From the NCBI GenBank assembly GCA_020137815.1, contig CM035353.1, positions 7,626,001 through 7,690,000 on the forward strand: 64,000 nucleotides of DNA, written 5' to 3'. The stretch comes from Hormiphora californensis (taxonomy: Eukaryota > Animalia > Ctenophora). Shown here piece after piece: positions 6,655-61,802 of the stretch; the stretch's first letter is position 1; each line of letters begins with the position of its first letter. The translations under genes were made by a program, and so were the position numbers. The notes below the pieces were generated by a model. The model did not search any database. It had not been told where the DNA came from and saw only the letters and a program-made list of their open reading frames with translations.

Positions 6655-7439
6655 GTTGAATTAGTTGGGGGACAAAATAGGGTGGTGAAGCGTCCTCAAA
6701 GGGGGGTGAGGGCAGGAGCTCAAAAAGTGTGACAAAATGTAGAGCAACAACGATATCATACAACACTTTCGGTGCAAACTCCAGTACGCACTGCCGTATG
6801 TGGTGCCTCTTACTGATAAATATCGGTGGGACTATCAGTACACAATCTCACGTGAGCTTAGCTCAGAAAAGATCAGTACGGTGCTGTATGTGCTCTTCGT
6901 ACTGAACTGAAAGGTCACGTGGGGGTCACGTGCGCGCACTAGCCAATGACAGACCTGCATCTCACAATACACACACACACCCACACCACAGCAACCAATA
7001 AGAGGCGCACGCACTCTCACTACGACAGAAAGGGCCACACCTAGAACAAGCGCGAGATTATCCGACATATCGAGAAAATATGTGCTGCAATCGGGAAAGA
7101 TAAGAGAGAGATAAGTGGAGATAAACATAACAAGAGAGAGAAAAGGAGGTAATGTGAAACCCAAACTAAAAAGGCCCACCTCAGGTGTCGTCGCGCGTTA
7201 CATACATGGTTGGGTTGGGTTTTGATGGATTGGGATTGTCAGCAGTTAGTGAAATCGCGCGTACGCGCACTTTTCTTTGTTTGAAACAAAGAAGGATCTG
7301 GTTGTTCCAAAATCCACGTCCCCGAAAATGAAAAACATTCATCTGTCATCACCGTTGTACTATTCATCATTTATTCATTGTTAATTAAACCGAAACACTT
7401 GATATACGATATTGCTTGTGAAAAAGTAGTAAAATGTAC

Positions 7440-10400
7440 AATCAACAAATTTTAAAACTTCTCCTCCCCCAAACATTTTCCCCTTTTCCTCGGGCCCCCT
7501 TTCCCTCTTCTGGCCCCCCCATTTTCTTTTTAAAAATTTTAACTCCATAAAATTTTTCCCCTTCTCTTCAAAATTTGAGGGGTCCCCCCTTTCCCAACCC
7601 CTTTCTTCCCCCCCCTTTCCCTCCTTTGGGTCCTCTTCTGTCTCTCTTTACTACCCCTTCCACAACCCGGGGCTTGCCCCAAAAAGGACCCTTCTCCTTT
7701 ATTTTTCTCTTCTTTTCCCTTTTCCTTTTTCACTTCCCCTCCCCCTTCCCCCCCCTTTTTCATCTCCCCCTTCCCGGAAAACCAACCCCCCAGGGGGGTT
7801 TCCCCCTCCGGGAGGGGGGAAAAAAAAAAGGGGGGTTCCGGGGGGCCCCCTCTCCTAATTTTACAGGGAAAGGGTCCCACCCTAGCCCCCAAGCGGGGGA
7901 GATTTCCCTTCCCCTTTTCTAGCCACCCGGGTGGGGGGGGTGAAAAATTAAGGGGGAAAATAAAGGGGTAAGGGGAAACAAAAAAGGGAAGGCGGGGGGA
8001 CCCCGGGGGGGAAGGAAAAAAGGAATTTGGGGGGGAAAGGGGGCCCCCAAACTAAAAAAGAAAGGGAAAGGAAAAAACCTCGGTGCGCCGCGGGGAAAAT
8101 TTGGGGTTGGGTTTGAGGGTTTGGGATTTCACAGAGTGGGGAGGCCACTTTTTTTTTTGGGCAACAAAAAGGGCCGGTTTTAAAAAACCCCCCCCAAAAA
8201 TAAAAACTTTCACGTCTACCGTTTTTAAATATTTTCTTTGGGAATTAACCAAACCAACTTGTTAAGGTTTATTGGCCATGGAAAAGGTTTAAAATGTACC
8301 TTCAAAAACCGGGGCACTCTAAAAAAACTTACCCAAAAAAACCAAAAAACACCCCCTTCTTTTCCTCTCCCCTCCTCTTCCTTCTAACCTTTCCTCTCCC
8401 CCTTCCCATCCCCCCGGGGGCTTCCCCTGGGGTACGCCTCTCCCCCAGGGGGGCCATCCCTTCCTCTCACCGCCCTTCCCAAACCCCCAATCCCAAAAGT
8501 CTCCTAGCCCTCTCTATTAGTTTTTTCTTTCCTCGCACACAATAAGGGATTTTGACCCGGGCCCGGGAGACAGAAAGGGGGAGAAAAGTGGAAAACCCCT
8601 CCATTCTTTTTGGCTTTCTTTGATAACCTGAAAAAAGTTTTTTCCCTTTAAAAATTCGGGGGTTGAAACCCCTATAAAATACAGGGCAAAGGTTTGGGGT
8701 TAAAAAAACGGTTGGTAAGAAAAAAGGGAGGGGGACCCGGGGGAAAACCCCCCCCACCCCCTCACCCCCCAACCCCCCCCCAAACCCTCCCCCCCTCTTG
8801 GTGTCTCTAATGATGATCGAGGGGGTGATTCTGGGGGAGTGGGGACAGTTTCCTGCGGGGAAGGGGATTTAAGTGATGGGGGGTTCAAAATCCAACCAAA
8901 AGGAAAGAGCGGGTTCCAAAACCCCCCCAAGGGAGAGGGGGGGGGGTTTTAACCACAAAAATTTGGGCCCCATTGCAACCTAAAACCACCCCCCCCCCTG
9001 GCGTGCCCCAAATTTCCCCCCGGTTTTCCCTTAATTATACAAAAACATCCCCCTGGCGGCAACAAAAACGGGTCCCCAGGTTTTCTAAATTAAAACAACA
9101 CATCCCCCTGGTTTGCTAAAAAACTTCCCCCGGTCTGCAAAATTTAAATACACACCCCCCCGGGGGCTTTACAAAACCCCCGGGCTGCTATCTTAAATAC
9201 AACAACCCCCCGGGGCTGCAACAAAACTTTCCCCGGGTTCTGCTAAAAACTATACACACATCCCCCGGGCTGGCTACAAAACGTCCATAGGCTGCTAAAT
9301 TATACCAAAACCCCCCCCTGGCTGCTCCCAAAACTCCCCAGGCCCCCTTCTTAACTATCCCACACCCCCCCCCGGGGCCCTGCTAAAAAAACGCCCCCGG
9401 GTCTCCCTATAACTATACCCACACCCCCCTTTGGCTTTCAAAAAAAACGTCCCCGGGCCCTTTCTATAATTAACACCCCTCCCCGGCTTTCAAAAAAAGG
9501 GCCCCCAGGTCTGCTATAATTATACACCCTCCCCCGGGCTCCCTACAAAACGCCCCAGGTCTGGTTAATTATACAACATCCCCCGGGCTGCTAAAAAAAC
9601 CACCCCGGCCCTGCATAATTATACACACACCCCCCGGGCTGCTAAAAAAACGCCCCCGGGGCGGGCCTAAACTAACACACACCCCCCGGGGCCCTGTTTA
9701 CAAAACGTCCATAGGTCTGCTTAATTAAAAACACCCCACCCCCCGGGTTTCAAACAAAAACGCCCCGGCGGGCTATAACTATACCACAACCCCCCGGGCT
9801 GTTTACAAAACCCCCCCCAGGCCCTCTATAAAAATACACACCCCCCCCGGGTTTTTCCTAAAAAAACCCCCCCATTTTTTCTAAAATTATAAAACACTTT
9901 CCCCCCCCCGGGCTGCTAAAAACCCTTCCCCATTTCCTTAAACTAACCACATCCCCCGGGCTGCCCCAAAAACGTCCCCAGGGCTGCTTAAACTATCCCC
10001 CGGGTTCCCCCTTTTTTTGTTTAAAAAACGTCCCCAGGTCGGGCATAATTATCCCCAAAATTCCCCCGGCTGCTAAAAAAACTTCCCCAGGCCTGCTAAA
10101 ATTATACACCCCTCCCCCCAGTTTCTAAAAAACGTCCCCAGGTCTGCTAAATTTATAACACACACCCCCCGGGGGCTGCTAAAAAACGTCCCCGGGTCTG
10201 CTAAAACTATACCACCCCCCCCGGGGGCTGCACAAACGCCCCCGGGTTTCTGCAAATAATTAAAATCCCAAAACATCCCCCTGGCGGGCTACAAAACGCC
10301 CCCAGGTCGGCTATAACATACACAAAAATCCCCCGGGCTGTTTACAAAACGTCCCCAGGTTTTGCTATAACATACACCATCCCCCCAGGCTCTACAAAAT

Positions 10401-13400
10401 CCCCAGGTCTTCTATAATTATACACCACCCCCCGGGGCTGCAACAAAACGTCCCCCAGTCTGCAAAAATTTATACAAACATTCCCGGGCCGTGTTAATTT
10501 GGGCAATTGATTGTCTTCATCGTCTTAAATTTTTGGGGCCTTTTGGGGTCTGTTTCATATACCTTTCCCCCTTTTCGAGGCCTTTTTTATCAATAAGGCA
10601 TTGAATTTTTCCCCTTTTAAATTTTTGGCCCATCATTATATTTTTTTCCCAAAATTTTGGGGTAAAAAACCTGAAAAGTGCCCGTGTGGAAAATAGAGAC
10701 GGATGGGGAACTATGTAATACTATTTAATACTATGAAATACTAGTATTTTAAAACAGGGAAAAAACCCCCTTTATAGAAAAAAAAAAACCCCCGTCAAAT
10801 TATTGAAACTAAAAAAAAGTGTTCTTTGATGTCCTGTGTTGACTGTATAATGGCTGGAATGATTATTTTGCAGCAACTTAAACTCACCGTTAAATTAAAA
10901 AACGCTTAATGATCCGAAATTCCTAAAGGGGGATGAGGGGGTTTAGTCTCTGCCCCCATACACCTGGGGAATAGGGGGGGAAACTCTGTACTGATACAAA
11001 AACCGGGGGGGGATGGGGGTTTGATCTCTGACTGATCAAACCCGGGGAATGATGGGGGGTTTGAAACTCTGCACATTTCTCCCCCTGTCCCCTATCGAAC
11101 TCTGTCCTTTCCCTCCACCCTGTCCCCATCTCACCCCTGTCTCTACTCCCCCTTTTCTCTAAACTCATTCTTTCTCCATCTCACCCCTTCTTGGGCTCCA
11201 TCTCACTCTTTTCTCCAATCTCCATTTTACTTCCCTTTTCCCATTCAAATTTTCCAAAAACCCCTTTTAATTCCCCCTTAACTTTTCCTTTTTTCCCCCT
11301 TAATCCCCCTTTTTTTCCCTTTTCACTCTTTTTCCCTCTCTTCCTTTTCTCTCTCTCTCCTCTCCCCTTTTCCCCTCTCTCTCTCTCTCCGGGTCTCTCT
11401 CCTTTCTCCCCTCCCCCCTTCCCTCCCCTCTCTCTTCTCTCGTCTCGCTCTCCCCCTCTCCCCCCCTGCCCTTTCCCCCCTTCCCCCCCAGTTACCCCCA
11501 GGGGTTTCCCCCCTTTACCCCCCCCATTACCCAACCCCCCAAAAATTTCCCAAACCAAATTTCAATGACGCCACTTTAATAAAGCGTTTTTACCGGGTTT
11601 CCCCTTTAAAAATTTCAGAGAGTGGCAACAAATTTTGACCCAAAAGGGAAAACAAAAGGGGTTTAAAGGGGAAAGACAAAGGGAATGACAGAGACAAAAA
11701 ACCAAAATATTTTTTAAAAAGAGGAAATTTGAGAGGGGAAATGGGAGGAGGAAATTTACCAGATAAATTTTAGTGCCGTTAAATGGGTTCCCGTTGGGTT
11801 TTTTGGGCCTTTTGGTTTTGCGGTTTGGGTTTGGTTTGTCCTGGGTTTCCCCCTGGCCCGCCCCCCTTGGAAGGCGCCCTTTCCCCCGGGCCCCGCGCCG
11901 GGGCCCCGGGGTCGCGCGTCGCGGCTCGCGCGCGCGTCGCGCGACAGCGCGAGCCGCGGCGGCGGGGGCGGCGAGGGGGCCGGCCCCACCCAGGCGCCCC
12001 CCGGGGAGGGCCCCCCGGGGCCGCGCGCCCGCGCTCCCCGCCCCAGGGAAGCGCCGGGGGGGGGTTTCCCCTTACCAGGTCTGTGAATCCCCTCAATAAA
12101 GACTGCCCGGGGAAACTGATGAGAACTGCTGTGAAAGGTTTCCCCCACCGAGTGTTTAGCTCATAGTAGTTTCCCTTTGCCCAGGGAATTTGGGTTCCCC
12201 CCGGGAAAGGAATCTGAGAGAGTAAATTTGTTATTAATCATTTGATAAAATATTGAAAGGGGGTCCCGGGTTGAGGGGGTTTTTAAAAGGGGGGTTATAA
12301 TGGGGGCTGTTTGGGGGGGTTAAAGGGGTACAGAGGGGGGTTTGAAGGAACTGAGGGAAAAGGACTCCGGGGTGGGGTTTGGGAAGGGTTTCCCATGTTG
12401 CTTTTGTAAGATCCAAGGTGGTAAAACTAGTTTTTGGGTTCGCAGAAAGGGGGGAGAGAGAGAGGGGAGAAAAGAGAGAAAAGAGAGAGAAAGGAGAGAG
12501 GAGAGAGAGGAAGAGAAGAGATAGAAAAAAAAGGGGAAATAAGAGATAGGAAAAAAGAGAGGAAGAGAGAGATTTAGAGGAAAAAAGAGGAGAGGATAGA
12601 GAGAAAGTGAAGGGAAAAGAAGAAAAAAAGAATAAAAGATTGGGGAAAAGAGGGGATTTGAAGATAGAAAGAGAGAGATAAAATCGGGCCCAGAAGAAAA
12701 ATAGAGGAAGGGTATAACGATGAGGAAAGGGTAGATTTGGGCCCCCCCCCCCTTTTTCCTTGTTTTATTTTCTTTTGGGGGTTTTTTTTGTCCTTTTAAT
12801 TTAAGAAAAAAAAAATATATAGATATACCCAAAGGGGGGGTATAAAAGTTATTAACCCCTGATTTTAGAAATATATAGTTTATCCCCCAATTTTATTTTA
12901 AAAACATATTTCTAGAATGAAGAAACTAAAGATAATAAACTATAAATAAAATATTTTATTAAAATATAAAAAATCTTTTATATATTTATATAAAAAAATA
13001 TATTAATAGAAATATAGAAAAATTAAATATTTAAATATATATAAATAATAATAAAATTTTTAAAAAATAAATATTATATAAAAATATCTAGGATATATAT
13101 TTTCATAAGATTTTTAAAAATATAAATTTTTAATTTCTATATATAAAAAAAATTGTTTTCCAATTTTAAAAACAAATTTTTACAAACTATATGGGCCCCC
13201 TTTTAAAATTGTTTTTTTTATTTTTTCCCCCCCCTACCCATCTTGATTATTTTATTCACTTGCTCGTCTCCCTTGACTGGTCCCGAACGGAAACCCCCCC
13301 CGTTAAATTTATCTTTTTGGGAAAAATTTTCCCCCGGTTTTAGGTTTCGATAAACTGAAGAGAAGGGTGTTTCTAAACGCTAAAGAATTCGGTTTTTTAA

Positions 13401-14420
13401 AATTTAAACCGAAACATCCTCCCAAAACCCCTTTAAATTATTAGGTTCGCTTTTTTCTTTTTAAAAACTTCACAAACCTTTTTTCTTTTAAAAAATTTTT
13501 AAATTTTGGGTTTTTTCCCTTTTTGGGTTTTTATAGACAAAACCCTTTTAAAACACGTTTTTTTGCTTTGCCCCCGTGCTGGGGGAAAGAGTCCTTATTT
13601 TGTCATTTCCTTTCCTTTTTCAAAAGTTTTTTTTCGGGGTAAAAGCTGTTGGGGTCCAGAGTCAAAAAACCCCCTTTTGTCCCTCTTTTGTCGCACTGTT
13701 TGGGTATTTTTACCCTTGAACCAAAAGCTTTTTTAAAACCCCAAAAAGGGTCAAAGCAAGATAATTTCAAAAGAAGGTTCAAATTTTTAGCAAAAAAATG
13801 CAGCCCAAAAAGACTTCCATTTAAGACTGAAAAATTACAAAAAGAAAATTTGGAAAAAAACGGAAAAAGAAAATTTTAAAGTTTGAAAATTTTTTAAAAA
13901 AACGCGCGCCCCCAAAAAAACTTTAGGGGATTGTTTTTCGGGGTCGCCGCACGGGTTTTTTTGTTTGGTTTTCATTTAGAGAGAGTCCGGTATTTGAGGG
14001 GGAAGTTTTTCACAAAAAAATTAAAAGGTTTTTTTAGTTGTTTTGAAGGTTTTTTATTTTGTTTGTTCAGAAAAGAGGCACCACTACACTCACGTACAGC
14101 TGAAGTTTCCAAACCGCAGTATGTGGTGCGACGTTTGGGATTTTCCCCGTGCGATGGGTCCCCCAGGGGACCTTCGGCCCCATGTGGGAGTGGCTGTAGT
14201 GGCCCCCAAAGGGGAGAAGAAGAGAAAAAGGGGAAAAAGGAAAAATAGAAGAGAAGAGAGAGAGAGAAGGGGGGGAAATTTTTTTTTTTTTTTTTTTCCC
14301 CCCCCCCCCCCCAAAAAAAACCCCCAAAAAAAATTTTTTTTTTTTTTTTTTTTCCCCCCCGGGGGGGGAAAATAAAAAGAGGGTCTTCCTTCTCTCTGAT
14401 CACTTCCCCCTCTTTCCCTC
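7440..14420. other. Low-accuracy (homopolymer-inflated) assembly segment
   Basis: Abrupt switch to pervasive runs of C, G, A and T. Recognisable repeat units are corrupted by homopolymer changes. All ORFs are low-complexity P/G/F/K strings. Confidence 0.8.
8985..10490. repeat. ~50-bp minisatellite (approx. CATCCCCCGGCTGCTACAAAACGTCCCCAGGTCTGCTATAATTATACACA), ~30 copies
   Basis: The unit recurs regularly despite sequence noise. Confidence 0.8.
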
Positions 14421-22816: not shown

Positions 22817-46024
<23,208 letters not shown>

Positions 46025-46588
46025 AATCCGAATGATTTTGACTGTTGACATAATGTCGTAGAACTAGACTAGATCAGAACGTCTAGACTCTAGTTGATAA
46101 ACGAACTTTGTATGTACAAGTCTGTGTACATAATCAATGATTTTAAGTTATTTTATACGATTTTATCCATGGTTATTAATTATTATCCTATATACTTAAT
46201 AACACCAAGAATGCTTTAGAACCATTTATAGTCATAAATTGGTTTTGTATAAAAAGTATTGAAAATGAAATGTACAGATGATTTCTACCGTCGTTTAACT
46301 AGTAGAAAACAGTTGTAAATAGTTTTAATTTTTATACTATTTGAAAAAACATATGGACTTTAGTTTTTGCTAAAACATCTCACTTCATAGAGCTTGAAAC
46401 TCCGAACCTAACGCGCGCGAATTATTTGCGCGTACCAATTTTATCTCAGCTTCGCGCGCGCTCAGTTTATTCAACTCTCCAAATAAAAATCCTGGCCAGG
46501 TCTCGCGAGATTTTTTAAACTTGGATTTTTAAATTCCGCTTTCATTTTCCGGATGCTGGAATTTCGGTCGCGTCCCTTTGCGTGCCTA

Positions 46589-48152
46589 CAGGGTGTCCCA
46601 TATATTCTGTGGGTCGGTTGGCGAGCTGTCACGCAAAAACGGTGATAGTTGTGTGAAAACAAACTACGGGAGTGTGCTGGATTAATTCCTTCCTAACCGA
46701 TTGCTTTGTTTTAAATTAAAATTTCAAAAGTTCATTTTTCATGAATGAACATTGCTGCCGTTCATTCATGAATTCTGAAATATTGTTTACTTTGAGTGAG
46801 TAACTTTTCTTTGGCTCGCAATTATCTTTCGAATGAGCACCATAAAAGTCAAATTGAAGCACCAGGTCACATGACAGTTGAGAAAATGAACATGCATGAT
46901 TTTGGCTCTTTCTGCGACTTTCAATCAGCTGTATCACCGCTACCTTATCTTCAATCTTTTTGAAACTTTGGGTGAACATTGGTTAAGCAAAGATCTTTCC
47001 TCACAAGAAAAATCAAGGTCATAACTCAAAGTTCATTTTTCAATTTTGGTATTTCATTCCACTCATTCAGGAACCAACATCCCTAAAATGATGAAAAGTG
47101 TTGGGTTTTGTTTGGCCCATGTCCTGCAATGACAGAGAGGTGTAGTAACGTGTTTCCGAGTTAGTTAGTGGGCGCCATGTGATCATGGCGATATCTGACA
47201 CCTTCGTTGAGCAATAATCAAGAGATTTTCTCTAATTCAAGCATGTGATTCGGGATTTCTACGATTGGTATCATGCAGCAATGTGAAGAGATCTCATAGC
47301 ACCTCAAAAATGATGATTAGTTCAATGAATTAAGTTGATTTATGATCGAAAATGGTCGTTTAGTTCAGTGTGGCATCGTGTTTTAATCTTTTTGATCATA
47401 AAACAACTTAATTCATTGAACTAATCATCATTTTTGAGGTGCTATGAGATCTCTTCACATTGCTGCATGATACCAATCGCAGAAATCCCGAATCACATGC
47501 TTGAATTAGAGAAAATCTCTTGATTATTGCTCAACGAAGGTGTCAGATATCGCCATGATCACATGGCGCCCACTAACTAACTCGGAAACACGTTACTACA
47601 CCTCTCTGTCATTGCAAGACATGGGCCAAACAAAACCCAACACTTTTCATCATTTTAGGGATGTTGGTTCCTGAATGAGTGGAATGAAATACCAAAATTG
47701 AAAAATGAACTTTGAGTTATGACCTTGATTTTTCTTGTGAGGAAAGATCTTTGCTTAACCAATGTTCACCCAAAGTTTCAAAAAGATTGAAGATAAGGTA
47801 GCGGTGATACAGCTGATTGAAAGTCGCAGAAAGAGCCAAAATCATGCATGTTCATTTTCTCAACTGTCATGTGACCTGGTGCTTCAATTTGACTTTTATG
47901 GTGCTCATTCGAAAGATAATTGCGAGCCAAAGAAAAGTTACTCACTCAAAGTAAACAATATTTCAGAATTCATGAATGAACGGCAACAATGTTCATTCAT
48001 GAAAAATGAACTTTTGAAATTTTAATTTAAAACAAAGCAATCGGTTAGGAAGGAATTAATCCAGCACACTCCCGTAGTTTGTTTTCACACAACTATCACC
48101 GTTTTTGCGTGGCAGCTCGCCAACCGACCCATAGAATATATGGGACACCCTG
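46589..48152. mobile_element. 1564-bp near-perfect palindromic Tc1/mariner-type non-autonomous element, copy A
   Basis: TA-CAGGGTGTCCCATATATTCT...AGAATATATGGGACACCCTG-TA. Arms of ~755 bp around a ~50-bp spacer. Confidence 0.92.
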
Positions 48153-48727
48153 TATATTCTAAAACAGAGCTTTATTGACTATTTCTGTGTTACATACCCA
48201 TCAGAGGGGTATCCAACCATTATTTGACTTCTGAGGTAGAATTCTTAGAGTTTTAAAGTTTAATCTCCTGAGTCCTGACACCGCTTTCGAAGGATGGTAG
48301 GAGTGCTCTGGCGCTTATAGAGTAACTTTGTATGACGTTTATCACTCTTACTATTTTAGTCACAAAGCGGGATGTTAAATGTACATTTTGATTGATTGAT
48401 TGACACTCAGTGCCAGCTGAACTGAATACTGATGCTGTTCACAGCTCGTGAAGGCTTTTATATTGGCGGTAGGCGTACAATATACGCCAATTACTGCCAA
48501 TATATCCATGCCTTGTAAGCTTTTTCGTTAAATCTAGTACATAGTGTGCAACTGCATTTTCCACTTTTAATATTTTCACTATTTTCAGAGCTAGCTCAAT
48601 GTGTTCTTGGCCTTACTCAGCACATGCTAAGGTTCAAGTATCACACCCGCACACCCATCCCCCGAGCCACTTTTAATCAACCCGCTATTCATCCACTTCT
48701 CCCCTGACCCCGTTCTCTCCCCTGCAG

Positions 48728-48787
48728 GATCTGTGCTCTCTCAACTAACAAATCGCAATTACCCAGGTAGTAGGTTGTGGTAAGTAT
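48728..48787 (+). promoter_or_regulatory. Non-coding leader exon ending in a U1-complementary 5' splice site that overlaps the U1-70K ATG
   Basis: Acceptor CTGAC..TTCTCTCCCCTGCAG at 48727. No ATG in 48728-48779. G|GTAAGTAT occupies 48779-48787. Confidence 0.65.
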
Positions 48788-49993
48788 GACCCAATTTTTA
48801 CCAGCAAATCTGCTGGCCCTTTTTGCACCGCGGGACCCCCTTCCCTATCTGCCCCCGCCGGCACCCCGCCACAACAACGAGGAGTCAACACTTACTGGAG
48901 TCGGTATGTATACTAGCCTGTTTGAGGATCCTGCGGACACCCCTGAGCCGGTAAAACAACCCACCAAGGCAGAAAGGAGAGAGGAGAAGCGACAGGAGAA
49001 AATAGAGCGTCACACCCTTATTGTAGAGAGAGGTATTGCCCGGTGGGACCCACATAGTGACCCCAATGCCACAGGTGATGCCTTCAAGACGGTGTTTGTG
49101 TCTCGTATTAACTACGACACTAGGGAGGAGAAACTACGACGAGAGTTTGAGGAGTACGGGTATATTCGCCGTATCCACATGGTTACTAACAAAATGGACG
49201 ACAAGCCCCGGGGGTATGCGTTTATTGAGTACGAGACTGAGAAGGGAATGAGAGGGGCCTTTAAGTATGGGGATGGAAGAAGATCGATGGAAGAAGGGTC
49301 GTTGTTGATATTGAGAGAGGGAGGACAGTGAAAAATTGGAAACCCAGGAGGCTAGGAGGTGGTCTTGGTGGGTCCAGGATCGGACCGCCAGAGGTCAACA
49401 TCACACATTCCGGAAGGGTAGATCCCAAACAATACAAGGAGAAACTGGAAAAGGCAGAAGCTTTGCGCATTAAGTCACTCAACCCTGATCCTGAAGATGA
49501 AGATGGAGAAGGAGAGAGGTCACCCTCGCGAGAAAGGTCGGAGAAGAGACGAGATGATGATGATCGGGGTCGTCGTGATGACCGGAGGATGGTGAGGAAC
49601 GATAATGATTCCAGATCCAGAGGGAGAAGTGACGACAGGAAGAGAGATGATAGGGATGAAAGGAGGGGGAGGGATGACGGACGGCGGGATGACAGAGGCA
49701 GGCGTGACGATGATAGGGGGCGACGAGACGATGATAGAGGACGGAGAGATGATGACAGGGGGAGGCGAGATGACCGGGACGATGATCGTAGGAGGAGGGA
49801 TAGAGATGATTCTGATCGGTACGGAGACAGGAAGAGAGATAGGCGGGGTGGTGATGACGATCGAGAGAGGGATAGGAAGAGGAGGGATAGGGGAGAAGAG
49901 AGGTCAGAGGATAAAAGTAAAGATTATGATGGACTGAAAGTTAAATCAGATGAAACAGGTGCCCCTGACCAGGTTGAAATCAAAGCTGAATGA
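48786..49993 (+). CDS. SNRNP70: U1 snRNP 70 kDa protein (intronless; apparent 1-nt deletion near 49278)
   Basis: [25 protein letters not shown]-terminus, [30 protein letters not shown]1 RGYAFIEY. After the frameshift it continues [31 protein letters not shown] into an RD-rich tail. Confidence 0.95.
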
Positions 49994-50123
49994 ACTGTCT
50001 GACGTATTTTTAACATCTACCTCTCTCTTACAAAATCCCAGTTATATCAATCTCGTGTCCACGTGTGTAACATGTCTTATTTTATGATACAATATATTTA
50101 CTGCATCGTGTTTCTATGTGGTA

Positions 50124-51617
50124 TATATCAGCAACAATAACTCCCCTTACTGCCCCCTATATCAGCAACAATAACTCCCCTTACTGCCCCCTATATCAGC
50201 AACAATAACTCCCCTTACTGCCCCCTATATCAGCAACAATAACTCCCCTTACTGCCCCCTATATCAGCAACAATAACTCCCCTTACTGCCCCCTATATCA
50301 GCAACAATAACTCCCCTTACTGCCCCCTATATCAGCAACAATAACTCTCCTTACTGCCCCCTATATCAGCAACAATAACTCCCCTTATTGCCTCCTATAT
50401 CAGCAACAATAACTCCCCTTACTGCCCCCTATATCAGCAACAATAACTCCCCTTACTGCCCCTATATCAGCAACAATAACTCCCCTTACTGCCCCCTATA
50501 TCAGCAACAATAACTCCCCTTACTGCCCCCTATATCAGCAACAATAACTCCCCTTACTGCCCCCTATATCAGCAACAATAACTCCCCTTACTGTCCCCTA
50601 TATCAGCAACAATAACTCTCCTTACTGCCCCCTATATCAGCAACAATAACTCCCCTTACTGCCCCCTATATCAGCAACAATAACTCCCCTTACTGCCCCC
50701 TATATCAGCAACAATAACTCCCCTTACTGCCCCCTATATCAGCAACAATAACTCCCCTTACTGCCCCCTATATCAGCAACAATAACTCCCCTTACTGCCC
50801 CCTATATCAGCAACAATAACTCTCCTTACTGCCCCCTATATCAGCAACAATAACTCCCCTTATTGCCTCCTATATCAGCAACAATAACTCCCCTTACTGC
50901 CCCCTATATCAGCAACAATAACTCCCCTTACTGCCCCCTATATCAGCAACAATAACTCCCCTTACTGCCCCCTATATCAGCAACAATAACTCCCCTTACT
51001 GCCCCCTATATCAGCAACAATAACTCCCCTTACTGCCCCCTATATCAGCAACAATAACTCCCCTTACTGTCCCCTATATCAGCAACAATAACTCCCCTTA
51101 CTGCCCCCTATATCAGCAACAATAACTCCCCTTACTGCCCCCTATATCAGCAACAATAACTCCCCTTACTGCCCCCTATATCAGCAACAATAACTCCCCT
51201 TACTGCCCCCTATATCAGCAACAATAACTCCCCTTACTGCCCCCTATATCAGCAACAATAACTCCCCTTACTGCCCCCTATATCAGCAACAATAACTCCC
51301 CTTACTGCCCCCTATATCAGCAACAATAACTCCCCTTACTGCCCCCTATATCAGCAACAATAACTCCCCTTACTGCCCCCTATATCAGCAACAATAACTC
51401 CCCTTACTGCCCCCTATATCAGCAACAATAACTCCCCTTACTGCCCCCTATATCAGCAACAATAACTCCCCTTACTGCCCCCTATATCAGCAACAATAAC
51501 TCCCCTTACTGCCCCCTATATCAGCAACAATAACTCCCCTTACTGCCCCCTATATCAGCAACAATAACTCCCCTTACTGCCCCCTATATCAGCAACATTA
51601 ACTCCCCTCACTGCCTT
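50124..51617. repeat. 34-bp minisatellite (ATCAGCAACAATAACTCCCCTTACTGCCCCCTAT) x44 ending in the CCAR1 acceptor
   Basis: Direct reading. The last variant unit ends CCTCACTGCCTTAG|AATG. Confidence 0.95.
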
Positions 51618-51620
51618 AGA

Positions 51621-54600
51621 ATGTCAACATGGAACTCCGCAGGTCGGAGTGTCCCAGTTACCCCTGATGGTAAGTAAAGTCTTCTTATTACAACACCTCA
51701 AATCCCCATGTTATAACCCCCTGTTACCTGTATCTGACTTCCCCCTGTTATCCTCTTGTATCTGACAGGAAACTACCAGATAACACTCCTCCTCCACCAC
51801 ATAGATAATACCTCTCCCCTACCAGGTAACTACCAGATAACATCAGAAGGGTATATCACCAAGAAGTTTCAGGGATATGGGTGTATTGATAAGAACACTA
51901 TGTTCAACTTCTCTTGTGTTCAAGGTATGTCTATTGTCTAGTGATAGTCTAATGTTTGTCTAGTGATAGTCTAATGTTTGTCTAATGTTTGTCTAATGTC
52001 TGTCTAATGTTTGTCTAATGTCTGTCTAATGTTTGTCTAATGTTTGTCTAGTGTTTGTCTAATGTTTGTCTAAGGTTTGTCTAATGTTTGTCTAATGTCT
52101 GTCTATTGTTTGTCTAATGTTTGTCTAATGTTTGTCTATTGTTTGTCTAATGTTTGTCTAATGTTTGTCTAATGTTTGTCTAATGTTTGTCTATTGTTTG
52201 TCTAATGTTTGTCTATTGTTTGTCTAAGGTTTGTCTAATGTTTGTCTAATGTCTGTCTATTCACCCCTCTTCAGGAACTATTCCCAATGTTGGTGATAAG
52301 GTCAGCTACCAGGCAGAACGTGCCACTGCCGCCTCCTGTTGGAATGCTACCCTGGTTAAAATCATCAAGTTCTCACAGACCCATGAACAGCAGGTAAAGT
52401 TCAGATCAGTAGTAATATTCAGGGTGAGGGTATCACAATGTTACTAAGTGTGATTGGTTAACATGTTCTCCTTCCTTTACAGCAGAAAAGTGTGCCACAA
52501 AGGTTGTCCGGTGGACAGAACACTACCACAAATCAGATCTCTGAACCACCCAAAATGTACCAACAACAACAGCAGCACTACCGCAATTCAACGGTACTAT
52601 AGTTACCTGATTACATGTCAACCGTAGCTGAAGACGTGAAACACAGTGTTCTCGAAAGCTTCTTTCAATTTTTAATTAATATAGTACCATTATATCATTA
52701 TTTATCTCGTGTATTGCTGGTCATATATCACACATACAAAAAACAAAAACAAAAAACAATGCACCAGATCACATTGTCCCATATGACACTGTCAGTAATA
52801 ATATACTCTCAGGAGAGTGGATCCAGGTTCTCTAAAGGTGCTCAACAACAAAAACAACAAAAACAACAGAGAGGTAGTGGTGGTGGTGGTCCATACAACC
52901 TGATGCAGGGACCTGCTACTACTGGAGTGCGATCTCGTCAGGATATGTGGTCATATGGCTCAGCAGGATGTAAGTGTATCGAGGCACGCCGTGGTGTCCT
53001 TGCACACCGCTCTATAATGTGGTTCACGACCCAAAACCAGTCCTGCTGCACACATTATTCATTATCCGTGGAGTTGTCTAACACAATGTGTTCCCAGACC
53101 ATTCTGCTAAACGGCCTCTATTCAATCGGAGATCGAGTGGAACCAGCAGTTCTGGTAGCTCTAGTAGCAGGAGTAGATCACCTGCCAAGAAGAGGAAGAA
53201 GGCACGATACTCAACTCGATTTGCTCGCTTCAATCTGACCAGGTCAGTTCACACTATGTACAGGGTGTCCCATATATTCTCCGGGTCGGTTGGCGAGCTG
53301 TTACGCAAAAACGGTGATAGTTGTGTGAAAACAAACTGCGGGAGTGTGCTGGATTAATTCCTTCCTAACTGATGGCTTTATTTTAAAATTAAATTTCAAA
53401 AGTTCATTTTTCACGAATGAACATTGTTGCCGTTCATTCATGAATTCTGAAATATTGTTTACCTTGAGTAAGTAACTTTTCTTTGGCTCGCAATTATCTT
53501 TCCAATGAGCACCATAAAACTCAAATTGAAGCACCAGGTCACATGACAGTTGAGAAAATGAACATGCATGATTTTGGCTCTTTTTGCGACTTTCAATCGG
53601 CTGTATCACCGCTACCTTATCTTCAATCGTTTTGAAACTTTGGGTGAACATTGGATAAGCAAAGATCTTTGCTCACAAGAAAAATCAAGGTCAAAACTCA
53701 AAGTTCATTTTTAAGTTTCGGTAGTTCATTCCACTCATTCAGGAACCAATAACCCTAAAGTAATGAAAAGTGTTGGATTTTGTTTGGCCCATGTCCTGCA
53801 ATGACAGAGAGGTGTAGTAACGTGTTTCCGAGCTAGTTAGTGGGTGCCATGTGATCATGACGATATCTGACACCTTCGTTGAGCAATAATTAAGATATTT
53901 TCTCAAATTAAAGCATGTGATTCAGGTCTTCTGCGATTGGTATCGTGCAGCAATCTTGAAAGATCTCATAGCACCTCAAAAATGATGAAAAGTTCTATGA
54001 ATTGAGTTGATTTATGCTCAATAAGATTAAAACCGATGCCACATTGAACTCAACGTCCATTTTCGATAATAAATCAACTCATTTCATTGAACTTTTCATC
54101 ATTTTTGAGGTGCTATGAGATCTCTCAAGATTGCTGCACGATACCAATCGCAGAAGACCTGAATCACATGCTTTAATTTAAGAAAATCTCTTAATTATTG
54201 CTCAACGAAGGTGTCAGATATCGTCATGATCACATGGCACCCACTAACTAGCTCGGAAACACGTTACTACACCTCTCTGTCAATGCAGGACATGGGCCAA
54301 AACAAAATCCAACACCTTTCATCACTTTAGGGTTGTTGGTTCCTGAATGAGTGGAATGAACTACCAAAACTTAAAAATGAACTTTGAGTTTTGACCTTGA
54401 TTTTTCTTGTGAGCAAAGATCTTTGCTTATCCAATGTTCACCCAAAGTTTCAAAACGATTGAAGATAAGGTAGCGGTGATACAGCCGATTGAAAGTCGCA
54501 AAAAGAGCCAAAATCATGCATGTTCATTTTCTCAACTGTCATGTGACCTGGTGCTTCAATTTGAGTTTTATGGTGCTCATTGGAAAGATAATTGCGAGCC

Positions 54601-57600
54601 AAAGAAAAGTTACTTACTCAAGGTAAACAATATTTCAGAATTCATGAATGAACGGCAGCAATGTTCGTTCATGAAAAATGAACTTTTGAAATTTAATTTT
54701 AAAACAAAGCCATCAGTTAGGAAGGAATTAATCCAGCACACTCCCGCAGTTTGTTTTCACACAACTATCACCGTTTTTGCATGACAGCTCGCCAACCGAC
54801 CCGGAGAATATATGGGACACCCTGTATACAGCAGGAACTGACCGAATCAGGGAACACTGGTCCCTGATTGGCTGATAACCAGTCACGTGGCCTAAATAAC
54901 GAGTTCTGATTGCAATTGGTTGTTTACTTGTGTCGGTCGGTTCCTACTTGATACTTCCTAGTATACAGTTTACATGATAGTTGTTATGTTATCTTGTTGC
55001 TGAGCTCCATCATGCTCTCTTTTCGGAGCGTGTTCGTCTACACGTTGCGCGTCGCGGGTGCACGAGCTAGCCCGGGTGAGCGAGCTAACAGTGGTGAACT
55101 TCCATGCGATATACTGCATCGCGCGCATGTAATTGCACTATTGTTAGCTTGTTCGCCCGGGTTTGGTACAGCATGCGGCGCGCAAAGGTGAGACGAACAC
55201 GTTCCGAAAATGCAGGATTACACTCCCTCTTACAGGTATTATATTATACATGGAGAAGTGCTGCAGAGGGGACTATCTTCTTTAACAGGTATACAGAATA
55301 CATCACTCTCTCTCTCAATCCTCAATGAATACATTCCACCGCTATATTTATAACACTGCCTCCACTATATTTATAACACTGCCTCCACTATATTTATAAC
55401 ACTGCCTCCGCTATATTTATAACACTGCCTCCACTATATTTATAACACTGCCTCCACTATATTTATAACACTGCCTCCACTATATTTATAACACTGCCTC
55501 CACTATATTTATAACACTGCCTCCACTATATTTATAACACTGTCTCCGCTATATTTATAACACTGCCTCCACTATATTTATAACACTGTCTCCACTATAT
55601 TTATAACACTGTCTCCACTATATTTATAACACTGTGACCTCCACTATATTTATAACACTGTCTCCGCTATATTTATAACACTGCCTCCACTATATTTATA
55701 ACACTGTCTCCACTATATTTATAACACTGTCTCCACTATATTTATAACACTGTGACCTCCACTATATTTATAACACTGTCTCCACTATATTTATAACACT
55801 GTCTCCGCTATATTTATAACACTGCCTCCACTATATTTATAACACTGTCTCCACTATATTTATAACACTGTCTCCACTATATTTATAACACTGTGACCTC
55901 CACTATATTTATAACACTGTCTCCACTATATTTATAACTGATATATTTCAGTTGTTGATTGAAGAAGATAGTTCCACGCTCTCTCCTCTCCTCCTTAGCA
56001 GGATACAACACGCGGTCACACCCTTTAACTGTTTCAGAGATCTGTACAAAAATAAAACATCCCCCTCGCTGTTTTTTAATAGGCCCCCTCTCCCTCTGTA
56101 CTTGTGTACTGCCCAACCCCCGCTATCTACAAATATCCCCCTCCCCCTGACTAATGCCCAACCCCCGCTGTCTACAAATATCCCCCTCCCCCTGACAAAT
56201 ACCCGACCCCAATCATGCTAATGAACACCGTTTCTCAAAACTAACCCGAACCCCCGAAAGGTTCCCCTGTCCCAAAAACACAGAGTTGTCTCCACTTCTT
56301 GAAGCCTATTTGCCCCCAATATTGTATATTTTATCTTGACAGATGTTTGTCGCTCCGCTAATTCTCTAACTCCCTCCCAGGGATAAATTCGATACGCTCA
56401 CCCTACAGAGAGAGTACTCAAACCTCTACATCCCGTCTGATACCAGCCTAGTGATCAGGTAACTAGACAGGGGCTAACTCACCTTAACAACAACAAGAGG
56501 ATCATGTCGGGGGGTGGGGTTGTTAGGTACACTTGTGTTGTCATGTACTGTCAGGAGACTCTGAGATACCTATTTGATTGTTGGTTTGGTAACGTACCGT
56601 CTCTCCCCAGGCACGGGGTACTAAAAGATGGCGGAGTTATCCCCTATACCAATATTGTTCGATACCACGTTATGGAACAACCCGGGGTATGTATATCTCC
56701 TTCCTTACTTTTTACTATTTCTACCGGCAGTAGAAGGCTGTGGGAGACAGTCTGACCAAGACGATCGCTATTCATCTCTCCTGACACCCCCCCCCCATAT
56801 AGGAACCTGTTGTACCTACGGGTAGCAAGACTATGAAATGTAAAGTCCTCCTACTAAAGTCCCTCTCAAAGACCAAACTGTATCACAGTGTACTGAATGA
56901 CAAGAGTGATCACTTCTTTAAACTCCTTCGATTCTGGTGTTGCAACAACGAGAAAGAGATAACTGCATTCGGTTAGTTGCAGTTGATCCCAAAATCTAAA
57001 TCATCCGAAATATTCTGAAATATTTTGGATCATCCGAAATCTTCTGAATCATTTTGCCACATTGATATGTTGTCAAGTTGTATAACTCTTTACAGGAGGT
57101 GGATGGAGTGCTGAGTTAGATGGTAGTGATCCGACAGACAAACAAACCCAGATAAACACTGCTGTTAGGAACGTTAAGAGTCAGCTTGGTATTGACCTCT
57201 CTTACTGCAAGACCTGGTACAAGATCAGTGAGGTATGTTCATCTGTTTGTGACAGGTCCCAATTTTAGTTTTAATCACTGTAATCCCACCTCCAGTCAGT
57301 ACGAACCACTGTAATCCCCTCCAGGTAGTATATCACAGAGTGAGTGATAAGAAGTCTGGAGCAGAGCACGATGAGAGAACAGTGTTGTTCCTTCCCAGTG
57401 TGTGGGACTGCCAGCCTTCTCAGGAGGAGTGGGATCTTGTCAAGGAATTCGTGGTAAGTAGTGACTACTGATACTAGCTGGGACTGAAATTATCTGAAAC
57501 AAAGATTCAATCTTATTCAGAAACCCAAATACGACCCTACAACCGGAGAAAAGATAGAAGACGAAAAGAAAGAGGAGGCAGCTGCAGTAGACAAAGTAAA

Positions 57601-60600
57601 GGATGAGACTAAAGAAGAGACTAAGGATGAGACTAAAGGAGATGCTAAAGAAGAGGAGAAGGCTGAAGAGATGGTAGTTGAGGAAGATAACGGAGAGAAA
57701 ACTGAGAAAGCTGAGGAAGATAATACTGAAGATGTTACTGAAGATGTTACTGAGAACCGTATCAAGAATATGAAGGTACATTTTATTGTGTCATCCCCTG
57801 GTGAGCCTCCCCCTGTCCTAATGTACATATAAAAGTGGAACTATTTAAACCAAAGCTAACTGCTAACTGTTACCAGGTAACTGAGTTACGAGATGAGTTA
57901 GAGAGACGAGGATTGAGCACCAAGGGGTTGAAGATACAGCTAACGGCACGGCTACTGAAGGCTTCCAAGGAGGAGACCCTCAAAAACACCAACTCAGATA
58001 ATGTAACTACTGTTGTAACTTGTAACTTGTGCCACTACATGCTGTATTGTGTCGTCCTGTGCTAACATGACTCGTTACTAGGTAGTGGTAGGGGAGGGAA
58101 CAGTAGGGGTACTGGGTGAGGAGAAGATGAAAGAGTTGGCTGGTAAAATGGGCCTTACCCCTGGTGTAGCGTATGATCTACCGGAGCTGTCCTCCATTGT
58201 ACTTCGTCCAGCAAAGGGTAAATATCACACACCTTCTCAGCAGGAACCGACCGAAACAAGTAAACAACCAATCAGAACTCGTTATTTAGGTCACGTGACT
58301 GGTTATCAGCCAATCAGGGACCAGTATTTCCTGATTCGGTCGGTTCCTGAATATCACACACCTTCTCAATCTTATTACAACTTGTGTGCCCTTCTTACAG
58401 TTAGACAAACTACTGGACCCTACCAAACAACCTTTATACTCCAGGTATTGAGATTGATGATTTCTCTCTCTCCTCTCTACTCGACTACAATAAGTCTGAT
58501 AAGAAGGAACGTGTGTTTGAAGTCTCTATGTTCGCTGAAGTACTCTCCGAGCTATTCCAGGTAATTTCTCGAATGATACCAGAGATATATATCAACCTTT
58601 TGAAGGAACGTGTATTTGAGGTCTCTATGTTCGCTGAAGTACTCTCCGAGTTATTTCAGGTAATTTCTCGGATAATACCAGAGATATATGTATATATCAA
58701 CCTTTAGAAGTAAAGTATTTCTCTCTACTCACTTCCCTCTACTCACTTTTCTATCTTCAGAGGCACTTTGGTTTGTTGATTCTAAAGGCCCTAATAGCAC
58801 TAGAAGGAGGTGATGACGCACTGGGTAGACAGCGTGTTGCCAGTGAGACAGAAGATAACGGTAGGTAACACAAACATTACCAACACACTACTAGTACACA
58901 GTTGTTGACACTGATCGTTACTAGGTAGTCGTTATAATGTACCCCCTTAATCAAGAAATACTGGTCCCTGATTGGCTGATAACTAGTCACGTGACCTAAA
59001 TAACGGGTTCTGATTGGTTGTTTGCTTGTTTCGGTCGGTTCCTGTAATGTACCCCCCTTAATATCAGGTACTGCTAAGGAAGTAGAGAAGAAGAAGGTTG
59101 AGACGTATATCTATCGACCTGATGTGATGCTAGCCTTCCAGTTCTTTGATCGTAACAGGACTGGGTATTTAGAGGATGAGGATCTATTGAACATCATCCA
59201 TAGTACCGGGCTCTCAATTAGTCGGGGTCAAATCATGGTGAGATAATGTACCGGACTCTCAATTAGTCGGGGTCAAATCATGGTGAGATAATGTACCGGG
59301 CTCTCAATTAGTCGGGGTCAAATCATGGTAAGATAATGTACCGGGCTCTCAATTAGTCGGGGTCAGATCATGGTGAGATAATGTACCGGGCTCTCAATTA
59401 GTCGGGGTCAAATCATGGTGAGATAATGTACCGGGCTCTCAATTAGTCGGGGTCAAATCATGGTGAGATAATGTACCGGGCTCTCAATTAGTCGGGGTCA
59501 AATTATGGTGAGATAATGTACCGGGCTCTCAATTAGTCGGGGTCAAATCATGGTGAGATAATGTACCGGGCTCTCAATTAGTCGGGGTCAAATCATGGTG
59601 AGATAATGTACCGGGCTCTCAATTAGTCGGGGTCAGATCATGGTGAGATAATGTACCGGGCTCTCAATTAGTCGGGGTCAAATCATGGTGAGATAATGTA
59701 CCGGGCTCTCAATTAGTCGGGGTCAAATCATGGTGAGATAATGTACCGGGCTCTCAATTAGTCGGGGTCAAATCATGGTGAGATAATGTACCGGGCTCTC
59801 AATTAATCGGGGTCAAATCATGGTGAGATAATGTACCGGGCTCTCAATTAGTCGGGGTCAAATCATGGTAATGCACAGAGTTCATTCTAGTTGTGATACT
59901 CTCCATGTGTTACTAACTCCTCCTCTCTCACTCTCTACTCGAAATATTAACTCCCTCTCTCACTCTCTACTCGAGATAGTAACTCCCTCTCTATTCCAGA
60001 CTATCCTGACGAAGGTACTACACAATAAGAACAAGTTATACTACCGGGGTTTGTGTGAGAGGGCCACTGCGGGGTCAAACAATATGATTCAACAAGAGGG
60101 TGTCTCTCTGAAGGAGATAGAAGAGGTCTTGTTACTGGGCTGTAACTCATCATCATCCTCTTCACCATTGGTTAGTTGATCCTTCCCAGTCCTAGTTGCT
60201 CCCCTAGTTACCCCTCCCCCAGACTCCAGTTGCTCCCCCAACTAGCTCCCCCTAGGTACCCCTCCCCCCAGTTGCTCCCCTAGTTGCCATGTTTGTGTGG
60301 CCCACTTTCATTCCAGATCATTCAAAACACCCCGTACCCCCCAGGTGGATTATGTAGAACCAGAGGAGACAGCAGGACCACCACCAGTTGCACCTGCACC
60401 TGTCAGTGACGATCTTGTGCTAGTCTCAGGTAATATGAACCTCCCTAACATACACCCCTTCTATAGTAACAATGTTATTAACATTAGGGTAAACCGGGGC
60501 AATTCGAACAACCGGGGCAATTCGAACAATGTACTGCCCGTCTCTCACCTAGTTAAGCTATCATAATGACGTCATCCTATCTCCAGAAGAAAACTGCTCG

Positions 60601-61802
60601 TTCGAGCCTGCCCGTTACCACTAAATAAGCTCTAGATCCGGTTTAAGTTGGTCAATTTCCGATTTGAAAAAACCAGCTGAAAGCTAATAATATCAGCTTT
60701 CAGATGGTATAAAAATTATTTAAATATTCGCATGTTTTCATTCCAAATTCTGGTAAATTAAGATTACCGGGGCAATTCGAACAACCGGGGCAATTCAAAC
60801 AGGGGCAATTTGGTTAACACCCGGGCCAATGATGTGCAGTTCTTTGTACCACGTGATCACGCGTGATACCGGGGCAATTCGAACAAGAACGACCAGCGTG
60901 TAGATTGCGTGTAGATTACATTGTTCGAATTGCCCTTACCTCTAACAACACCAGGCGGGTATCTTCTTCTGGTGTTGTGAGGACGTTCACGTGACTCCCA
61001 CGTGACGAAATAAAGCACTCCTATTGGTGTTATCCGAATTGCCCCGGTACCATTTTTTCCGACCAAAATTTTTAAATTAGTTATTTAGTTAACTAAATGA
61101 TGGTCCCTAGAGTTGAAATTTATCTTATTAGAAAGATAAAATAATGAACTTTAATCCTATATAATTTTTTTCATTGTATCTTTTTTTAAATGGGAGTGAG
61201 AACCGATTAAGTAAAAAGTTAACCATTTTGCCCCGGTTTACCCTAACATTAACAACTATCCTGCTACACTGATATACCTCCCTAACATACACCCCTTCTA
61301 TAGTAACAGTGTTATAAACTACTATCTTGTTCAGGTTCCTATGTGATGAGGTCTGAGCTAGCAGAGCTACTCAACAAAGCTATGAAGAAGGTGTCTAGTT
61401 TGGAGGGGAAGATAAAAGAAGTTGAAAAAGAAAATGATAAACTCACTAGAGGTTCGTTTGATGTGCACCACCCCTTTCCCTCCCCCGAGTCAACTGTTGA
61501 AATATCACTAGTATAGGCCCCACTCACTACCCTTTTTATTTACAGATGTAAGAGACTCCAAGGATTCCCAGACGAATTACAATGACCTGGAAAAAGAAGT
61601 GAAAACAAGGAAGCGAGAATTGGAAATCTTGGGGGTGGAAAAGACACGGTCTGAATTGTCGCTTCGAAAACACACCAAGTGTTTGGAGACCGCACGAGAG
61701 GGTCTACAGGGAATATTAGCGGATGTCATCTTAACCTTGGCAAAAAGGGAGGAAGTGAAACAAGAGAGTGACCAAAAGGACAAAGTGAAAGTTGAAAAGT
61801 GA
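51621..61802 (+). CDS. CCAR1: Cell division cycle and apoptosis regulator 1 (CCAR1/DBC1 family), multi-exon
   Basis: S1-like domain (GYITKKFQGYGCID..VQGTIPNVGDKV..WNA; 51826-52390). RYSTRFARFNL..YSNLYIPSD. DBC1 domain (GGWSAELDGSDP..INTAVRNVKSQLGIDLSYCKTW; 57096-57232). SAP domain (MKVTELRDELERRGLSTKGLK). SLLDY..ERVFEVSMFAE. EF-hand (AFQFFDRNRTGYL). C-terminal coiled coil ending in TGA at 61802. Confidence 0.92.
51935..52260. repeat. 11-bp intronic repeat (TCTAATGTTTG)n
   Basis: Direct reading. Confidence 0.9.
53261..54824. mobile_element. 1564-bp palindromic Tc1/mariner-type element, copy B (spacer in opposite orientation to copy A)
   Basis: Same termini, TA TSD and length as copy A. Inserted in a CCAR1 intron. 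Confidence 0.92.
54832..54946 (-). mobile_element. hAT-type MITE, copy 4
   Basis: Reverse-orientation copy with a small internal insertion, 7 bp from the palindromic element. Confidence 0.85.
55020..55210. mobile_element. Small GC-rich inverted-repeat element
   Basis: TTTTCGGAGCGTGTTCGTCT...AGACGAACACGTTCCGAAAA. Confidence 0.5.
55339..55937. repeat. 23-bp minisatellite (CCACTATATTTATAACACTGYCT), ~26 copies
   Basis: Direct reading. Confidence 0.95.
58241..58349 (+). mobile_element. 109-bp hAT-type MITE, copy 5
   Basis: Intact TIRs, flanked by the 19-bp direct repeat AATATCACACACCTTCTCA. Confidence 0.9.
58503..58705 (+). repeat. 99-bp tandem duplication of a CCAR1 exon end plus donor
   Basis: KERVFEVSMFAEVLSELFQ|gtaatt occurs twice in frame, with donors at 58561 and 58660. 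Confidence 0.9.
58949..59044 (-). mobile_element. Truncated hAT-type MITE, copy 6
   Basis: One TIR is lost. Flanked by the ~17-bp direct repeat TAATGTACCCCC(C)TTAAT. Confidence 0.85.
59203..59870 (+). repeat. 45-bp tandem array x15 of a CCAR1 exon end plus donor
   Basis: Unit GTACCGGGCTCTCAATTAGTCGGGGTCAAATCATG|GTGAGATAAT. Donors run from 59238 to 59868. Confidence 0.95.
60487..61243. mobile_element. Non-autonomous DNA transposon (GGGTAAACCGGGGCAA TIRs)
   Basis: Perfect terminal inverted repeat and repeated ACCGGGGCAATTCGAACA motifs. Flanked by TAACATTA on both sides (8-bp or TA-type TSD). Confidence 0.8.

Follow-up and report, generated by a model that had tools for sequence, protein, structure and literature searches.

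How is a gene expressed when its start codon is at the same time the end of a near-perfect 5' splice site? The question is raised by a stretch of 64,000 nucleotides of the ctenophore Hormiphora californensis (assembly GCA_020137815.1, contig CM035353.1, positions 7,626,001 to 7,690,000; hereafter the window, whose own coordinates are used throughout), in which the gene for U1-70K (SNRNP70) is followed on the same strand by CCAR1. An earlier note on this DNA had proposed that the whole U1-70K open reading frame (ORF) is a removable intron of a transcript shared with CCAR1, and that the abundance of U1 small nuclear ribonucleoprotein (snRNP) decides which of the two mRNAs is made. Following the analysis below, a leader shared by both genes is given a probability of roughly 0.45.

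The U1-70K gene and its start-codon donor

The upstream gene is U1-70K (Pfam U1snRNP70_N, PF12220, E 6e-23; RRM, PF00076, E 7e-13; an RD/RE-rich tail is present) and, as the earlier note had it, is intronless. In this assembly the ORF is frameshifted near 49275, where one extra base is present in both DNA run X6 and RNA run X9; together with the intact Pleurobrachia bachei gene model P0003 (the closest protein, 98% identity), this shows the frameshift to be an assembly error and the true ORF to be intact. The gene is expressed, as RNA contigs from three runs match it with few differences (the RNA runs being assembled low-depth contigs from mixed marine samples). One contig of RNA run X13 spans 48745-48995 without a joint, which means that the leader is part of the U1-70K RNA, as had been proposed, and that the donor is read through in it. 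The DNA continues past 50038, 50067 and 50071, where RNA contigs from two studies break off, a weak hint at a U1-70K 3' end near 50.1 kb.

The leader (48728-48779) holds no ATG and ends in the donor G/GTAAGTAT at 48779-48787, the final AT of which opens the U1-70K ATG (48786), exactly as the earlier note read it. This string occurs only once in the window, both strands counted. When matches are counted against the U1 consensus, under the assumption that ctenophore U1 small nuclear RNA has the canonical 5' end, the start-codon donor has the longest run of contiguous matches (9) on the + strand from 22.8 to 62 kb, compared to at most 8 in each of the 21 candidate CCAR1 donors, of which that at 57454 is identical to it in letters -3 to +7. 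Under Markov models of the 27.7 kb of the window left unmasked, the chance of GGTAAGT within the 58-nt leader is p = 0.003-0.004, and that of GGTAAGT in the exact register before the ATG is 7e-5, both values being post hoc and uncorrected for the number of genes read. The sense strand of the 27.7 kb of transcribed sequence that remains after repeat masking has eight GTAAGT. One is the start-codon donor, and seven mark the end of an exon, an assignment that for 57454 comes from homology and otherwise mostly from inspection by eye; the chance expectation is 6.7-8.4, and the antisense strand holds five. Idle sense-strand donors therefore look rare in the window, consistent with avoidance, and from 40354 to 51670 the + strand contains a single GTAAGT.

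Since the leader opens at a strong acceptor (48727), it is likely a target of spliced-leader (SL) or cis splicing and not a transcription start, and such an acceptor 52 nt upstream of the donor would make a definable exon of it. The leader does not fold better than shuffled sequences (z -1.37), and no substitution is listed in it for DNA run X6.

Loss of the intron-7 switch

In vertebrates, U1 bound to cryptic donors in intron 7 of U1-70K activates a poison acceptor, with the remaining intron staying unspliced, and this switch is described as conserved among vertebrates (PMC3798272). The window gene is continuous at the switch codon in the RRM, i.e. there is no intron, so that U1-70K has lost the element carrying the known feedback, which raises the prior that the start-codon donor does the same job. 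Relatives that possibly keep the RRM intron need not share the donor.

The intron-7 switch appears to occur outside vertebrates as well, judging from one sequence and, probably, a second. L009 is 99.4% identical to L007 (the coding form), and both fall outside the ctenophore-like clade and the bilaterian rows of a 19-row tree (midpoint root); judging from their SL-like ends, they are likely hydrozoan. Within the RRM, L009 (511-1479) departs from the reading frame where the sequence is not GT, meets a stop after six codons and rejoins the ORF after TTTAG; the codon of departure is the vertebrate exon 7/8 border. It contains 12 GT(A/G)AG sites versus a mean of 2.2 and a maximum of 8 in shuffles (n=2000). 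The ctenophore-like protein P0125 leaves P0008 at this same codon (residue 157) with Cys-Lys-stop and probably reads into a GTAART donor of an intron-7-type intron, as suggested by the protein.

With L009 as its unproductive isoform, the exon-7a switch appears to be of much greater age than PMC3798272 describes. A genomic U1-70K of another eukaryote (L011:3277-4094) has an intron at the same RRM codon with four GTAAG sites. A description of the switch in cnidarians was not found in the literature searched, outside of which most subscription papers lie. Another ctenophore-like U1-70K reads into a probable intron after the RRM (P0006 versus P0123, residue 254), so that not all ctenophore copies are intronless.

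CCAR1, the intergenic array and the candidate acceptors

The identity of the downstream gene, likewise proposed in the earlier note, is confirmed by Pfam (DBC1 and SAP above the cut-off, EF-hand; the S1-like exon is a weak match below it, E 0.008) and by tblastn of Mnemiopsis CCAR1 (P0134), which matches over 51825-61727; these domains and the coiled coil follow one another as in CCAR1/DBC1 proteins. The acceptor CACTGCCTTAG ends at 51619 and the CCAR1 ATG lies at 51621, as had been noted; in Mnemiopsis the distance from Met to the S1-like stretch is also 17 residues, which supports this ATG. RNA run X13 contains the splice of CCAR1 exon 2 to exon 3, from which it follows that true mRNA of this animal is present in it.

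Between the genes lie the short 3' region (131 nt from the stop at 49993 to position 50124) and the minisatellite that the earlier note described, and there is no obvious promoter. With the array removed, the distance from the U1-70K stop to the CCAR1 acceptor is about 135 nt, which argues for co-transcription, whichever splice follows. Co-transcription is considered probable in its own right, and, given co-transcription, appreciable use of the donor on a CCAR1 acceptor is somewhat favoured. Other arrays in the window likewise abut splice sites.

Acceptors were scored on a position weight matrix (PWM) built from 19 CCAR1 acceptors (a 20th, with no AG at its assigned coordinate, was dropped), on which the true CCAR1 acceptors range from -8.7 to 11.2. 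Besides the sites in Table 1, position 48588 scores 9.9, and each of the array's 44 AGs is a candidate acceptor, 43 of them with a higher score than 51619 (5.6-6.8, most of them 6.4, versus 1.2). The site at 48804 is only 25 nt past the donor, compared to 79 nt for the shortest CCAR1 intron counted.

Table 1. Positions of the splice sites, genes and array discussed here.
Feature	Positions	Strand	Remarks
Pyrimidine-rich acceptor before leader	48710..48727	+	from sequence; PWM 9.0; likely SL (or cis) splice site
ATG-free leader, 52 nt	48728..48779	+	in U1-70K RNA (contig X13, 48745-48995, no joint); sharing with CCAR1 predicted
U1-complementary donor overlapping U1-70K ATG	48779..48787	+	9 contiguous consensus matches
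Intronless U1-70K (SNRNP70) ORF, ~402 aa	48786..49993	+	1-nt assembly error near 49275
Acceptor-like site in U1-70K codons 2-7	48791..48804	+	PWM 10.0; 25 nt past donor
Acceptor-like site near U1-70K ORF end	49959..49972	+	PWM 8.6; nearest good donor partner; three RNA contigs cross unspliced
U1-70K 3' region, likely poly(A) site	49994..50123	+	without AATAAA; AATATA at ~50091
34-bp minisatellite, 43.9 copies	50124..51615	+	unit resembles pyrimidine/AG stretch before CCAR1; no ATG in unit
Acceptor 1 nt before CCAR1 ATG	51609..51619	+	from sequence; PWM 1.2
CCAR1 coding exons, about 22	51621..61802	+	S1-like, DBC1, SAP, EF-hand, coiled coil

RNA coverage and trans-splicing

CCAR1 exon 1, where the predicted 48779-51620 junction would end, is covered by none of the four RNA runs (X7, X9 and X22 have nothing, X13 only 51888-51925), and 48361-48726 is without cover in any RNA run. 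Among the RNA runs examined, of which only X13 spans 48779, there is no 48779-49973 joint, and the RNA runs showed no SL-bearing RNA at the leader acceptor (48727), nor was there any SL read of this animal.

In Hormiphora, at least 56% of the Iso-Seq reads bear the SL (PMC8527503), and 41 letters of it match the window exactly at 36872-36912. This copy is intronic and is not followed by GT; rather than an SL RNA gene, it is likely a trans-spliced RNA that was reinserted.

Relatives and linkage

The earlier note had asked for the linkage of SNRNP70 and CCAR1 in relatives, and it recurs in P. bachei P0003, where U1-70K is continued by CCAR1 exon 2, after which U1-70K comes a second time (perhaps through duplication in the assembly). 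The model seems to join the U1-70K ORF at the acceptor-like site at 48804. In the tree mentioned above, seven ctenophore-like U1-70K proteins form one clade (support 100/99), including those encoded by L001 and L002, which are 74% and 68% identical to the window protein. The idea that the L001 junction is a combined acceptor and donor was dropped, since 7 of the 19 CCAR1 acceptors are themselves AG/GT.

The metagenome scan gave 12 loci from 103 stretches (2 ctenophore-like, 8 transcripts of another clade and 2 genomic contigs), a count exclusive of ten Joint Genome Institute members of the P0008 cluster; both genomic contigs carry U1-70K with introns and have no CCAR1 match. Of the candidate stretches, 0 of 147 from viral contigs and 0 of 70 from prokaryote genomes were confirmed. 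A fused U1-70K/CCAR1 protein was not found among 154 CCAR1-like proteins (the best 150 of 741 matches plus four Mnemiopsis isoforms). The supplements of PMC11797021, PMC6278862 and PMC10876535, as far as they are searchable text, contain none of the terms looked for. Mnemiopsis CCAR1 has an NCBI locus tag, and the protein searches returned no NCBI U1-70K of Mnemiopsis, which may be unannotated.

How the locus may work

From these elements we infer co-transcription, donor use and an effect of U1 on the ratio of the products, which would fit together as follows. U1-70K and CCAR1 are likely made from one primary transcript, and U1-70K mRNA would result when the start-codon donor is read through and the RNA is cleaved near 50.1 kb. 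In RNA that escapes this cleavage, the donor would be spliced to the CCAR1 acceptor region, by which the whole U1-70K ORF is removed. Suppression of nearby poly(A) sites by U1 is established in vertebrates, and here a larger supply of intact U1 snRNP would shift the balance toward CCAR1, both by promoting donor use and by holding back the poly(A) site near by; the start-codon donor would in this way replace the lost RRM switch. The cap at 48727 probably comes from SL trans-splicing, which may also vie for the CCAR1 acceptor; a mixture of cis splicing and SL on CCAR1 is possible. A likely origin of the arrangement would be insertion of a processed copy of U1-70K directly downstream of the donor of an intron in the 5'-untranslated region of CCAR1.

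The U1 feedback is plausible but separate from the shared leader, and as a prediction it is on the unlikely side. The same doubt attaches to the full scenario, i.e. that pleurobrachiids lost the intron-7 switch and rebuilt its feedback by turning the U1-70K ORF into an optional CCAR1 intron, with a product ratio set by U1 and without waste through nonsense-mediated decay (NMD).

Several observations weigh against this explanation. The donor is not general in the ctenophore-like clade: the earlier note would have it conserved in relatives, yet it is present in neither of the two ctenophore-like U1-70K mRNAs with a visible 5' end, L001 and L002, whose SL-like ends lie 8 and 3 nt before the ATG, without GGTAAGT. 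Three RNA runs show no joint or loose end at 48779, a site spanned by X13 alone (depth ~8), and a joint across the array would be visible only as loose ends. The acceptor at 51619 is weak and is preceded by the 44 AGs of the array. An acceptor abutting an ATG is expected from SL trans-splicing anyway, and that of CCAR1 could be used by the SL without any upstream donor; in Schistosoma, the SL competes with upstream cis donors (PMC5832876). With respect to the feedback, it is the weak sites that carry the U1C dependence in the vertebrate switch (PMC3798272), and a near-perfect donor makes a poor graded sensor. The contrast in idle donors between sense and antisense strands is 1 versus 5, numbers too small to be firm, and the substitution-free 58-nt leader in X6 is not significant against ~3% upstream.

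Alternative explanations

Part of this evidence would also fit an operon-like pair, in which one transcript yields U1-70K polyadenylated near 50.1 kb and CCAR1 capped by the SL, either at 51620 or at one of the array AGs. The donor would then not be joined to CCAR1, but be either an unspliced U1-binding site (restraining U1-70K RNA or helping read-through) or a matter of chance. Such a pair is the leading alternative and a serious possibility, though short of even odds. It is in keeping with the high proportion of SL reads in Hormiphora (PMC8527503) and the SL copy in the window, with the SL-like ends close before the ATG in L001 and L002 and the CCAR1 acceptor 1 nt before its own, with a spacing that is operon-like once the array is removed, and with the richness of Ciona operons in single-exon genes (PMC2760879). 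It does not account for the strongest U1 site in the region, however (p about 0.003), and trans-splicing is, in the classical view, disturbed by a donor upstream (PMC5832876); the literature search found no paper on operons in ctenophores, and there is no SL-CCAR1 read, though CCAR1 exon 1 is without cover.

A distinctly less likely case is that the genes are independent, with CCAR1 transcribed from a promoter of its own, located within the array or the 3' portion of U1-70K, and SL-spliced from a short outron, so that the donor acts on U1-70K only (e.g. by a splice to 49972 that gives a short non-coding RNA) or is a chance occurrence. The site at 49972 is indeed the first good acceptor past the minimum intron length, and we are not familiar with any ctenophore promoter signals, which makes the apparent lack of a promoter weak evidence. 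But there are only 131 nt of unique non-coding DNA between the genes, the corresponding joint was not seen, and three RNA contigs cross 49972 unspliced. Very improbable, finally, is a processed pseudogene in the 5'-untranslated intron of CCAR1 with an intron-bearing parent elsewhere, which the earlier note had named as a refuting case: the gene is intronless and frameshifted in the assembly, as a pseudogene would be, but the frameshift is absent in X6 and X9, the gene differs little from the RNA contigs of three runs, P0003 has an intact ORF at 98%, and no loose end lies inside the ORF among the X6 records listed (82% likeness).

Other features of the window

Two copies (92-93% alike) of a 1.57-kb self-inverted-repeat element are present at 46587-48157 and 53256-54828, one just upstream of U1-70K and the other in a CCAR1 intron. 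Within CCAR1, a tandem array repeats an exon end with its donor (59203-59869, 45 bp x 14.8), and a 99-bp duplicate of a partial exon plus donor is found at 58503-58689. Upstream, a long EF-hand/coiled-coil gene (~22800-46025, + strand) is ninein-like by eye, with an antisense gene (~41900-43870, - strand) nested in one of its introns and an apparent frameshift near 41370 that may be another assembly error. The region ~7400-14400 is of very low quality, likely raw long-read noise. Rfam gave no match in the window.

Comparison with known systems

With the vertebrate U1-70K/U1C intron-7 switch the locus would share that U1 on donors of the pre-mRNA lowers productive U1-70K mRNA (PMC3798272). The vertebrate switch consists of a cluster of mostly unused donors, a poison acceptor and an NMD product (PMC3798272), whereas here the RRM intron is gone, a single strong donor sits on the ATG, and the predicted product is the mRNA of another protein. 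In operation the locus would thus parallel the vertebrate switch, but with neither the intron nor the cluster it falls outside that class.

In its layout, with an ORF wholly between a donor and the first acceptor of the other gene (48780...51619), it resembles unc-17/cha-1 and unc-60A/B of C. elegans, in which the nested unit is entered via its own acceptor (PMC3875643). In the window, in contrast, the ORF is contiguous with the leader and its use would require that the donor be passed over; its protein, moreover, belongs to the very machine that reads this donor. SL operons of Ciona and nematodes (PMC2760879) are alike in having genes on the same strand with little unique DNA between them, an acceptor just before the downstream ATG and a single-exon upstream gene. 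The window differs from them by the 1.6 kb from stop to acceptor (due to the array) and by an unpaired strong upstream donor, and SL on CCAR1 is hypothetical; the working definition of less than ~100 bp between genes (PMC2760879) compares with a 1.5-kb array here, or ~135 nt without it.

CstF-77 and PCF11 are under feedback by intronic polyadenylation. U11-48K and U11/U12-65K are likewise under feedback, through the U11 snRNP-binding splicing enhancer (USSE; PMC3798272, PMC5473595). In all of these, as would be the case here, the gene of a factor gauges its own machinery via competition between splicing and the formation of 3' ends, but the short or alternative product is non-productive, whereas in the window the intronic 3' end would yield a productive mRNA. 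Neither a link between U1-70K and CCAR1 nor a donor on the U1-70K start codon was found described in the literature search, which had the coverage given above.

Should the junction be real, control of a core spliceosome gene would consist in excising all of its ORF, and what is made instead would be a second splicing factor. Together with an intron-7 switch outside vertebrates, this would, if true, mean that U1-70K feedback predates vertebrates and that a new device arose after loss of the intron. In ctenophores, the locus would then also offer a natural test case of how a cis donor, a poly(A) site and SL trans-splicing compete.

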